Below are positions 1,700 through 4,542 of a DNA stretch of 47,734 nt, piece after piece. Location: positions 1 to 47,734 of the forward strand of contig CAWLAN010000001.1 in the NCBI GenBank assembly GCA_963854815.1, in the 5' to 3' direction. The stretch's first letter is position 1, and each line of letters starts with the position of its first letter. Origin of the DNA: Planctomycetes bacterium UBA1146. Its GTDB lineage: Bacteria > Planctomycetota > UBA8108 > UBA1146. The notes beneath the pieces were generated by a model. It searched no databases. It was not told where the DNA came from and saw only the letters and a list, made by a program, of their open reading frames with translations. The translations under genes were made by a program, and so were the position numbers.

Positions 1700-2830
1700 T
1701 TAGGGGCAGCTGGTCTGATCACACTGAAGGGTATCGGTATCGGTCGGATCGGGGCCGCAACCAGTCTGGAGATTCGGCTCCGGAATCGGCGTGGCACCGG
1801 GAATGAACAGGCTCGAGAGCAAGAACACCGCATCCGCAACGTTGACTCCGCCATCATCGTTGACATCGCCGGAATCGCGACACCCCAGTGGAGTCGCTCC
1901 GGGTATGAACAAACTCGACAGCAGGAACACTGCATCGGCAACATTTACGCCCAGGTCGAGATTGCAGTCACCGCGGATGAAGGCATCCCCCGTTGGGCAG
2001 GTCGTGGGAGTTTCCAGCAGCGCGATTCCATTGACGTCGACCGGCATTGTTCCCAACAACTGCTCCTGGCCATCGCTATCGACCAGATAGGTCGAATCAT
2101 TCCCCTGCACCCAGATGAAGACATCCTCGTCATCCCAGTAGGTCAGACTACGGACCGGCTGCGCGCTGAGAGTGGCAGACAGAGGGATCGTCGTCGAATC
2201 GCAATTGTTGGGTCCAGTGACGGCGGGGCGCTCGAACTGTGGCGTTGAACCGGCCGTCCATCCTCCCGAGGCACGGAACACTTCTTCGCCAGCACCCAGA
2301 GCGATGGAATCACCACCGTCACTGCCGTCGTACTGGCACAGATCGAGTGGCCCACCGGTGATGGTGCTCAACTCGCAGTAACTGGATTCTCCCGTGGTGA
2401 GAGTATTCGTGATGGCACGAAGTTCGCCGGACTCGGTGAACTCGAGATCATTGAAATCGAGTATGGTAAATCCGATCAGGCTCAAGGTGAGATTGATGGG
2501 GTCGTATTCGAGCAACCACGGCGAAGGCGCCGGAGATGGCGGTAGCGAAAGCATCGCGAGCATGAACCAGTTGCCGGTGCTGGGATGGATCGCGATTCCC
2601 CTCAGCCCATCGATCTCGATGGCACCAGTGATCGATATCGGAGTCTCCGAAATCACCGCGAGCGTATCAACATCGAGCTCCCTGACCACATCGTCCTGAT
2701 CGGAAACAGTCAGGAAGGTGGTGACGAAGCAATTGACTGGCCCCGCCTGCCCCTCCAGGGAGGACGTGGTTACCGTCATGCACAGCAGCATCACCGTAGC
2801 AACACTCTTCAGAAAAATATTCGATTTCAT
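1700..2830 (-). CDS. secreted hypothetical protein with a C-terminal double dockerin-like (EF-hand) module
   Basis: N-terminal signal peptide (MKSNIFLKSVATVMLLCMTVTTSS). The C-terminus reads FIRGDCNLDLGVNVADAVFLLSSLFIPGATP...GDVNDDGGVNVADAVFLLSSLFIPGATP..CGPDPTDTDTLQCDQTSCP, which are two dockerin type-I-like Ca-binding segments. Confidence 0.8.
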   Translation of the reverse strand: MKSNIFLKSVATVMLLCMTVTTSSLEGQAGPVNCFVTTFLTVSDQDDVVRELDVDTLAVISETPISITGAIEIDGLRGIAIHPSTGNWFMLAMLSLPPSPAPSPWLLEYDPINLTLSLIGFTILDFNDLEFTESGELRAITNTLTTGESSYCELSTITGGPLDLCQYDGSDGGDSIALGAGEEVFRASGGWTAGSTPQFERPAVTGPNNCDSTTIPLSATLSAQPVRSLTYWDDEDVFIWVQGNDSTYLVDSDGQEQLLGTMPVDVNGIALLETPTTCPTGDAFIRGDCNLDLGVNVADAVFLLSSLFIPGATPLGCRDSGDVNDDGGVNVADAVFLLSSLFIPGATPIPEPNLQTGCGPDPTDTDTLQCDQTSCP

Positions 2831-2879: not shown

Positions 2880-4229
2880 CTAGCGCCCGAGCGCTTTTTT
2901 TAGCGATTTTTCCAGTTGGTCGTAACTCTGATATCCAGCTTCCCGGGACACAACGTTGCCCTTGCGGTCGATGAAATAGACCGTCGGCAGTCTCTTCAAA
3001 TGGTACTGCTGAAAACCAACGCCGTCGCCCCGCAGCAACATCCGTTGCTGGAGATCGTTCTCCTGAACGAACTCTCGAATACGGCTTCTGCTGTCATTGT
3101 CGGCATTAATTGCCAGCACGGCGACGTCCTGGCTCCTGTATTCCCTCTGGATCTTGCTGAGGTACGGAGACTCCGCACGACAGATACCTCACGAATAACC
3201 CCAGAAGGCCAGTAGCAACGTTTTGCCCCTGTACTCTTCCAGTGTCACCTGATTCCCGTCGACGTCATCGAGGGTGAAAGCGGGTGCCGGCTTGCCGATC
3301 ATCTTGCGGGCTCTCACGTCAGGATCGAGCGGTTGCGAGGCGATCTTCTTGCTCGCCTTCAGCAGTCCGGCCACCTCCTTCACCACGTCACCGAGGGGGC
3401 CTTTCTCGTGATCCTTGCGATCCTCGTTGAACATCTTCTCGGCGATCTCCACCGCCGCCAGGGACATTCCCTTGCGCAGAACCCTCACCACGGGTGCGAG
3501 AAACTCGTATCCGCTCTGAACTTCCTGCGATTCCTGTGCGTCGATAAGACCTGCCTCGAGGCGTTGGACCTTGAGTTGGCGCTTCTCGGTGCGGGCATTG
3601 TCGTCCTCGCCACGAATCAGCGTGGTAACCCATTCGGCAGACTTGAGGGATCCGCCTGCTGACATGTGAAGAGTTTCCGTGAACTCGGTCATCCTCAGAG
3701 CCCTGGCACCTCCGCGCACCACGATCTCGCTCCCGGCAAGAGTTCCAGTCTGAGTGATCATGCCATCTGCAGCGGTGACTTCTTTTCTCTCGACGGGAAT
3801 CTGGCGACGAAATCCGACCGGGGTTGCGTCAGCCCAGCCGAGTCCGTTCTCATGGCCACCAGCGCCGTGGACCGATAGCAACATCTCCATCACACCCGGA
3901 GAAAGCGGATCGAACAGTTCCGGTCTCGGTTTCCCCGTTCCCTGGATCAACATCGAACCGATGGGAAAACCACCCGGGAACGAACCATCCGATGCGACCG
4001 CTCTCCAGACCCAACGATGCCCACTCGGAGCAGGGATCTGGTAGATGGTCACCTCGTACTGGACCGCGTCCTCACCGCGAACTCTTTCGACACTCCAGAC
4101 GGCCTTGGCCGATTTCGTCTCTTGCTGCTGAACCGGAACTGCCATCGAGACGGCAGACAGGGGGGCGAGAAGAAGCAGTACAGGAAGGGACTTCCACAAA
4201 GCCCTCTCGGTCCAGCGGCGTGATCGCAT
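2880..4229 (-). CDS. TlpA/ResA-like thiol:disulfide oxidoreductase fused to a domain of unknown function of about 330 aa; predicted selenoprotein (TGA at 3189-3191 read as Sec)
   Basis: ORFs 3189..4316 and 2880..3119 share a frame ((3191-3119)/3 = 24 codons). Only one TGA and 23 sense codons separate them. The joined sequence ...GKPAPAFTLDDVDGNQVTLEEYRGKTLLLAFWGYS-U-GICRAESPYLSKIQREYRSQDVAVLAINADNDSRSRIREFVQENDLQQRMLLRGDGVGFQQYHLKRLPTVYFIDRKGNVV... is collinear with the TlpA/ResA fold (FWATWCGPCRAE...GLPTTFLID). The likely start is ATG 4229 (MRSRRWTERALWKSLPVLLLLAPLSAVSMA, a signal peptide), preceded by GGAGGAG. Confidence 0.7.
3158..3191 (-). promoter_or_regulatory. SECIS-like hairpin starting at the UGA
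   Basis: The minus strand is UGAGGUA-UCUGUCGUG-CGGA-GUC-UCCG-UACCUCA. It forms a 7-bp outer stem (UGAGGUA/UACCUCA), a 5' bulge, and a 4-bp apical stem (CGGA/UCCG) with a GUC loop. The apical stem starts 13 nt after the UGA codon. An alternative 7-bp apical stem GUGCGGA/UCCGUAC is also possible. Confidence 0.5.
3189..3191 (-). other. in-frame UGA, candidate selenocysteine codon at the first position of a U-G-I-C redox motif
   Basis: The minus strand reads GCC TTC TGG GGT TAT TCG TGA GGT ATC TGT CGT GCG GAG, which translates as A F W G Y S * G I C R A E. The stop aligns with the first Cys of the thioredoxin-fold CxxC. Confidence 0.65.
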
Positions 4230-4542
4230 CGAGAATCTCCTCCGATAAGAAAAAAGTAGGCCTCTTTGTCCAAATTCGAGGGGATGTGGGAATTCCATGC
4301 CCATCCGGGGTGCCACTCCATTTCACGGTAATCTGCCCGGGAATCGGAGGCAAGGGGTGTCCAATTGGGTACTGGTATCCTGGAACCGGCTCCACTACAC
4401 TAGGAGCCGATGCGTGAGCGATGGGCCCGTCCCGGGGATTTTCTGTGAGGGAATCGGGAAACGGGTGGCGTCTTACGGGATGTTGGGTCGGTGCCGCAGG
4501 TGTTCGACCACCCACGGTAAACCTCTCTGGAGGAGGGATGAC

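Follow-up and report, generated by a model that had tools for sequence, protein, structure and literature searches.

A single in-frame TGA interrupts a long reading frame on the minus strand of the window, by which we mean the whole 47,734-nt stretch of DNA from Planctomycetes bacterium UBA1146 analyzed here, and a hairpin lies directly behind it. The locus raises the question of whether this codon ends translation or is decoded as an amino acid, and what the hairpin has to do with it. The first-pass annotation had likened the hairpin to bacterial SECIS elements, and this reading is supported by covariation of the stem among UGA-containing homologs, by its absence from Cys homologs and by the presence of tRNA-Sec, SelA, SelB and SelD in the genome. 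We conclude, with high confidence, that selenocysteine is encoded by the UGA at 3191-3189(-), with the hairpin behind it as its bacterial SECIS element.

The gene and its in-frame UGA

The longest ORF on the minus strand runs from a GTG at 4316 to 2880 and carries one in-frame TGA, at 3191-3189; the likely start is an ATG at 4229, which places the selenoprotein gene at 2880-4229(-). The UGA (3189-3191, minus strand) is codon 376 when counted from the GTG and codon 347 from the likely ATG, and standard ORF calling cuts the gene into two ORFs of 375 aa and 79 aa. Translation through the UGA gives ...LLLAFWGYS-U-GICRAESPYLSK..., in which the U, read as selenocysteine, replaces the first Cys of a CxxC motif (U-G-I-C). 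The encoded protein begins with a stretch that by inspection is signal-peptide-like (MRSRRWTERALWKSLPVLLLLAPLSAVSMA), continues with about 300 residues for which there was no family match, and ends in a ResA/TlpA-like redoxin domain. This Redoxin/AhpC-TSA domain (TlpA/ResA-like thioredoxin fold; residues 340-470, positions 2905-3299, minus strand) has the UGA inside it, and both PF08534 (E 1.1e-22, 80.8 bits against a cut-off of 26.6) and PF00578 (E 1.9e-22, 80.0 bits against a cut-off of 26) matched it in Pfam as one domain across the TGA.

The nearest solved structures are thiol-disulfide oxidoreductases of the ResA, TlpA and DsbE type. The best PDB match was ResA 4nmu (7.7e-21), with the Sec position aligned to the first Cys of the ResA CxxC. 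The protein shares with ResA, TlpA and CcmG (PDB 4nmu, 1st9, 1jfu) both the fold and the active-site layout FWG-x-x-[C/U]-x-x-C-x-x-E-x-P, but it differs from them in having Sec for the first Cys and a long N-terminal extension, and its score with the NCBIfam ResA model NF002854 (95.9 bits) lies below the cut-off of 170 for that subfamily. Two named selenoprotein models likewise scored below their cut-offs: NF041054 (WAxxUGC) with 41.3 against 300 and NF053656 (TUGYCR) with 19.2 against 100. The product would be a thiol:disulfide oxidoreductase of ResA/TlpA type, exported and with U-G-I-C as its active site. Selenoproteins have been reported in Planctomycetes (PMC4807772). Directly downstream on the same strand, at 1700-2830(-), lies a gene for a secreted protein that carries two dockerin-like repeats (GDCNLDLGVNVADAVFLLSSLFIPGA...).

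Thirty full-length orthologs came out of a six-frame search through 60 related genomes. These orthologs represent the whole family and part of the order, their identity ranges from 92% to 28%, and each of them carries its TGA at this codon. The codons that follow at +12 to +27 read CGT GCG GAG (T/G)CT CCG CAC, with one codon used by all of the 30 orthologs that have the amino acid in question, where the degeneracy is 6, 4, 2, 6, 4 and 2; the flanking conserved residues (G, Y, F, C, I, K, Q, V, L) are encoded by 2-6 codons each. The bases without synonymous variation coincide exactly with a 17-nt stem-loop, GUGCGGA-GNC-UCCGCAC. The His codon CAC is replaced by the Tyr codon UAC in the window and its nearest relative alone, which turns one G-C pair into G-U. 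Immediately before the UGA, at 3192-3194(-), all 23 orthologs with Ser at that position use TCG out of six possible Ser codons. This codon has no obvious pairing partner, and its conservation may reflect a codon-context effect on UGA decoding.

The hairpin and its covariation

The outer pairing described in the first-pass annotation is real: on the minus strand UGAGGUA (3191-3185) is complementary to UACCUCA (3164-3158), with 20 nt between. Both of the inner stems offered there, CGGA/UCCG and GUGCGGA/UCCGUAC with one G:U pair, can also be formed. The small loop does contain GU, either as GUC or, with the closing A-U pair open, as AGUCU, but the distance of 13 nt from the UGA that had been given for it is that of the start of the CGGA stem; the loop itself starts 16 nt after the UGA if counted to A3172 (3188-3173) and 17 nt if counted to G3171. 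The conserved part is a 17-nt core at 3162-3178(-), which starts 10 nt after the UGA (spacer 3188-3179) and whose arms, 5' GUGCGG (3178-3173) and 3' CCGUAC (3167-3162), form a 6-bp stem. The apical loop is A-G-U-C-U (3168-3172, minus strand), with G3171 and U3170 as the presumed SelB contact, and an optional seventh pair, A3172-U3168, gives 7 bp with a 3-nt loop instead of 6 bp with a 5-nt loop. The 17-mer is GUGCGGAGUCUCCGUAC in the window and GUGCGGAGUCUCCGCAC in its His-type counterpart. There is no U-run 3' of the hairpin in the window sequence, and an Rfam covariance-model search gave no family match, only three chance-level matches (E 5-8) to unrelated eukaryotic families.

Folding energy had been put forward as a check, with a result no better than shuffled controls counting against the hairpin. 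Formally, that is the result: the 46-nt stretch folds at -12.7 kcal/mol (z = -0.97), 36 of 200 shuffles fold as well, and the 111-nt context gives z = -0.83. The comparison has low power for a helix of 6-7 bp, and we rejected folding energy as a SECIS test because z-scores are uninformative for a helix so short. The minimum-energy structure of the 46 nt is the stem that had been listed as the alternative, GUGCGGA/UCCGUAC with a GUC loop; the 34-nt hairpin folds at -10.5 kcal/mol and the 17-mer alone at -7.9 kcal/mol. When all 86,996 TGA triplets of the genome were scanned, 36 had a 6-bp stem and a G[G/U] loop behind them in the same arrangement, against a chance estimate of about 30; three of these are open-framed on both sides, and only the window locus lies in a redox motif. 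The geometry alone is therefore no predictor of selenoproteins, and together with the z-scores this means that the single sequence by itself proves nothing. The excess over chance is entirely comparative.

Two alignments carry this comparison. The first was built by protein homology and holds 54 sequences (46 distinct rows), including distant UGA paralogs of the same class. Pairing in the apical helix reaches 98.8% across the 46 distinct sequences, and three pairs have changed in a compensatory way, the counts being CG31/GC8/AU5/UA1 at one pair and GC30/AU14/GU2 at another. None of 500 shuffles reached the covariation score, and slid controls were 37-54% paired. In the distant paralogs, GCG...CCG-CAC is replaced by AAG...CCU-UAC, AGG...CCC-UAC, ACG...CCG-UAC or GUG...CCA-CAC, and CGU...CAC by CGA...CUC, with both sides of the stem altered together. 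The loop G (column 30 of this alignment) is G in 54 of 54 sequences.

The second alignment came from a cross-phylum DNA pattern, applied to one genome per species, that fixed F-W, TGA, Cys, CGN, NNG-GAG, CCN and a final C. It matched at least 119 loci, labeled with many phyla, among them Planctomycetota, Acidobacteriota, Actinomycetota, Methylomirabilota/Rokubacteria, Chloroflexota, Eisenbacteria, Armatimonadota, Gemmatimonadota, SAR324, Poribacteria, WOR-3 and Desulfobacterota. Because the 120 distinct sequences were ascertained by a pattern that fixes three of the six stem pairs, as well as the loop G (G20), we considered the free pairs: 14/28 is paired in 120/120 (GC37, UA32, AU19, CG18, GU12, UG2), 15/27 in 118/120 and 16/26 in 119/120, the last two again with six pair types each, counts that overstate the number of independent events since sequences within a phylum are related. 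The presence of both G-U and U-G pairs assigns the helix to the sense strand and so to the mRNA. Conservation and covariation of the stem in other UGA-containing homologs, the other check that had been proposed, thus turned out as a SECIS element predicts, with 98.8% pairing among the 46 distinct sequences and 118-120 of 120 across phyla. The distance from helix to UGA is fixed to the nucleotide in the 174 aligned Sec sequences of the two alignments (54 + 120), and none of them has a bulge in the stem. The A-U seventh pair (19/23), considered as an obligatory part, was dropped from the description: it is paired in only 49 of 120 cross-phylum sequences, so the general loop has five bases, A-G-[G/U]-N-N.

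The helix also leaves its mark on the protein. Two residues, one between R and E and the other following P, vary in concert with the choice of Arg and Pro codons (codons +12, +15, +24 and +27), and the 120-sequence alignment contains R-A-E-x-P-H, R-K-E-x-P-Y, R-R-E-x-P-V and R-E-E-x-P-P/S among its combinations. This joint variation of residues and codons indicates that the RNA constrains the active-site peptide.

The outer stem fared less well. The first-pass annotation had taken it as the main fold; the inner stem GUGCGGA/UCCGUAC, given there as the alternative, is the conserved one, and of the 7-bp outer stem only UGAG/CUCA recurs, weakly so outside the family. The 5' arm of this lower helix, UGAG (3188-3191, minus strand), includes the UGA itself, and the 3' arm, CUCA (3158-3161, minus strand), spans a Leu CUC and a Ser AGC codon, which are CUC in 28 of 29 and AGC in 26 of 29 orthologs. 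In the family set, pairing of UGAG/CUCA (positions 0-3/30-33) amounts to 89.7% and a single compensatory change occurs (A-U in L041, G-C in the others); across phyla only 72.7% is paired, against 40-54% in slid controls. The remaining outer pairs, 4-6/27-29 (GUA/UAC), occur only in the window and L014 and compete with the apical stem. In the window the outer-stem and apical folds are nearly equal (-9.8 and -9.2 kcal/mol) because Tyr UAC in place of His CAC weakens one pair to G-U, which makes the competing fold about as stable; the commonest ortholog sequence gives -6.5 kcal/mol for the outer-stem fold against -11.2 for the conserved one. We therefore rejected the 7-bp outer stem as a functional unit.

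Homologs with Cys in place of the UGA served as controls for the protein sequence. The 20 Cys homologs found by the same homology search were 43.6% paired on the SECIS structure, no better than slid controls. A second control consisted of 30 homologs, drawn from 300 genomes of the same phylum, that encode F-W-x3-C-x2-C-R-x-E-x-P; the full stem was present in 0 of these 30, and the four stem pairs that are free of the peptide motif (14/28 to 17/25) were 23-33% paired. The most direct comparison is between L050 (Sec) and L083 (Cys), which encode an identical peptide, PPCRTEAPYLSKLVE: the Cys gene uses CGC, GAA, GCG and CCC, and three pairs are broken by synonymous changes alone. Since Cys homologs with the same motif, or even the same peptide, lack the stem, the structure is explained by the UGA and not by the protein sequence. 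The earlier statement that protein sequence alone fails to account for the structure is in this way borne out.

Decoding machinery and competing readings

We then considered whether the genome can decode UGA as selenocysteine. The assembly (2.7 Mb, 232 contigs, 88% complete) encodes tRNA-SeC (anticodon tca), selD and selA next to one another on contig 13 (G000:C13:6008-8431(-)), and selB, complete with the winged-helix domain, on contig 42. The selD gene has one in-frame TGA and is therefore probably a selenoprotein gene as well. Thus tRNA-Sec, SelA, SelB and SelD are all encoded alongside a stem that covaries in UGA forms and is absent in Cys forms.

The same genome contains a second TlpA-like family with UGA (G000:C58:5539-6003(+) and G000:C5:5846-6244(-), with relatives L066-L081). 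Its motif is FWGDW-U-GPCRAMYPHERSLV, and an invariant CACGAGC-GGUC-GCUCGUG hairpin with an fdhF-like GGUC loop lies at +27 to +44. The loops of the two UGA redoxin families lie 17 and 31 nt after the UGA, so one genome has at least two SECIS geometries. Elsewhere, a Chloroflexia MAG (JAUIIK010000030.1; L142 3933-5538) has three UGA-redoxin and hairpin matches within 1.6 kb on one strand.

Two further matches deserve description. A redoxin with a bacterial-type in-ORF SECIS occurs on a 9.6-kb contig labeled Methanobacteriota archaeon MED870 (PAEE01000009.1; L128 3328-3378). An archaeal origin of this match is improbable, as that MAG has no tRNA-Sec above cut-off, no SelA and no SelB, and the closest peptide to the redoxin is from Ca. 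Actinomarina; the contig is probably mis-binned. A Ca. Actinomarina MAG of 1.1 Mb (G345) itself carries tRNA-SeC(tca) (C5:30150-30240), selD with an in-frame TGA (C5:2986-3906) and a UGA redoxin with hairpin (L176 5166-5216). Neither SelA nor SelB was found in it by Pfam or TIGRFAM models, and since selD lies 3 kb from the contig end, the missing genes may lie in an assembly gap.

The machinery also bears on a rival reading, in which translation passes the UGA with no selenocysteine involved, perhaps through a near-cognate Trp or Cys tRNA, and the hairpin is a generic stimulator of read-through or a pause site. Downstream hairpins are able to stimulate read-through in other systems, and selenocysteine insertion in the window gene is something that we infer. 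We nevertheless consider this very unlikely: the Sec machinery in the genome is complete, the UGA stands in place of the catalytic Cys of CxxC, which is a typical Sec position, loop and spacing match the SelB-type SECIS model, and other UGA redoxins in the same genomes have a hairpin with an fdhF-like GGUC loop.

It is extremely unlikely that the TGA is a true stop, leaving two genes or a pseudogene and a hairpin that is due to chance or terminator-like. The split into 375-aa and 79-aa ORFs and the unexceptional fold energy would suit such a reading, but the TGA is kept in 30 of 30 orthologs down to 28% identity with the downstream frame and domain intact, a single Pfam domain spans it, the 79-aa fragment would have no active site, a U-run is absent after the hairpin, and covariation is confined to UGA forms. 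Structural conservation by itself names no function, yet another role for the helix, unrelated to UGA decoding (in mRNA stability, in sRNA binding, or in pausing translation for export or folding), is exceedingly improbable, given that the helix is strictly linked to the UGA, that Cys homologs of the same phylum with the same motif and even identical local peptides do not have it, and that its distance from the UGA is fixed to the nucleotide in 174 aligned Sec sequences.

Taking the UGA as a selenocysteine codon and the hairpin as its SECIS element, the course of decoding can be outlined from E. coli. There, according to the reviews PMC13188914 and PMC8659212, SelB-GTP-Sec-tRNA(Sec) attaches to the apical loop, the lower helix is unwound when the ribosome reaches it, and the tRNA is handed over to the A-site UGA. 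In the window gene, entry of the UGA into the A site would melt the weak lower helix UGAG/CUCA, which would leave the apical stem-loop positioned where the mRNA enters the ribosome. SelB could bind the stem-loop there through its C-terminal winged-helix domain, with the loop G (and U) as contacts, and would deliver Sec-tRNA(Sec) in competition with RF2. SelB binding and Sec insertion at this particular UGA are thus predicted by analogy.

Relation to known SECIS elements and UxxC redoxins

The bacterial SECIS model of bSECISearch (Zhang and Gladyshev), as laid out in Fig. 2 of PMC13188914, has a 3-9 nt loop on a 4-16 bp upper stem, a G as the first or second base of the loop (mostly N1-G-[G|U]-N-N2), a UGA-to-apical-loop distance of 16-37 nt, and an MFE of -7.5 kcal/mol or lower. 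The window element, a stem-loop that lies within coding sequence right behind an in-frame UGA, where the frame is open on either side, fits the model in all four respects: its stem and loop measure 6 bp and 5 nt, or 7 bp and 3 nt; its loop is A-G-U-C-U, with A and U pairable, and AG[G/U] in relatives; its MFE is -12.7 (46 nt), -10.5 (34 nt) or -7.9 kcal/mol (17-mer); and its UGA-loop spacing of 16-17 nt lies at the very bottom of the range. The minimal SECIS of E. coli fdhF, as summarized in PMC8659212 citing Liu et al. 1998, is a 17-nt upper stem-loop 11 nt from the UGA in which U17, G23 and U24 are essential. Like it, the window element is in the ORF directly 3' of the UGA, consists of a 17-nt apical stem-loop with G-U in the loop, and has a lower helix that includes the UGA; SelB is the presumed reader here. 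Unlike fdhF as described there, with its 11-nt spacer and bulged U, the window element has a 10-nt spacer and a bulge-free, perfect helix of 6-7 bp, its loop is AGUCU (AG[G/U]NN in relatives) rather than GGUC, and its critical G is nearer to the UGA by 2 nt.

Thioredoxin-fold selenoproteins with UxxC have been catalogued earlier in marine metagenomes and genomes (PMC2398784, PMC13188914), among them a 'Prx-like thiol:disulfide oxidoreductase' (PF00578) with UxxC (PMC13188914) and, in the GOS survey, 'Prx-like 1' (pfam00578) and 'Prx-like 3' (pfam08534, with fusions to unknown domains) (PMC2398784). The window protein has its domain above the Pfam cut-offs and its UGA at the first Cys of CxxC, where homologs have Cys. 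Likened by description, it resembles these UxxC Prx-like families in combining PF00578/PF08534 with UxxC, in its many Cys homologs, in its marine source and in the fusion of a redoxin to an uncharacterized domain, and it differs from the catalogued proteins in its N-terminal region of about 300 aa that has no family match.

Could these elements form a class of their own? We put forward only tentatively, and with some doubt, that a distinct SECIS class, for which there is no RNA-family model, extends across many phyla and is built into the C-R-x-E-x-P motif of TlpA-like redoxins. Such a class would be set apart by a 10-nt spacer, a bulge-free 6-bp stem, an A-G-[G/U]-N-N loop and the minimum UGA-loop distance known for bacteria. 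Helix and peptide would co-evolve in it, the residue within R-x-E, the residue after P, and the Arg and Pro codons being jointly chosen to keep the pairs. If the class is real, a model of it would recover many mis-split genes, and its members would be a natural data set on how SelB recognition constrains the active-site sequence of an enzyme.

Conceptually nothing here is new, as both UxxC redoxins with Sec and bacterial SECIS hairpins inside ORFs are well established, and the window gene with its hairpin is a well-supported but ordinary addition to a known class. For RNA biology, the alignments document natural covariation in a bacterial SECIS with unusual clarity: all six pair types occur at three of its pairs, and there are matched Cys controls encoding the same peptide. 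For annotation, the locus should be described as one selenoprotein of about 450 aa, predicted to be exported, and not as fragments of 375 aa and 79 aa, and the same correction applies to the orthologs in all searched genomes of the family and to the look-alikes in many phyla.
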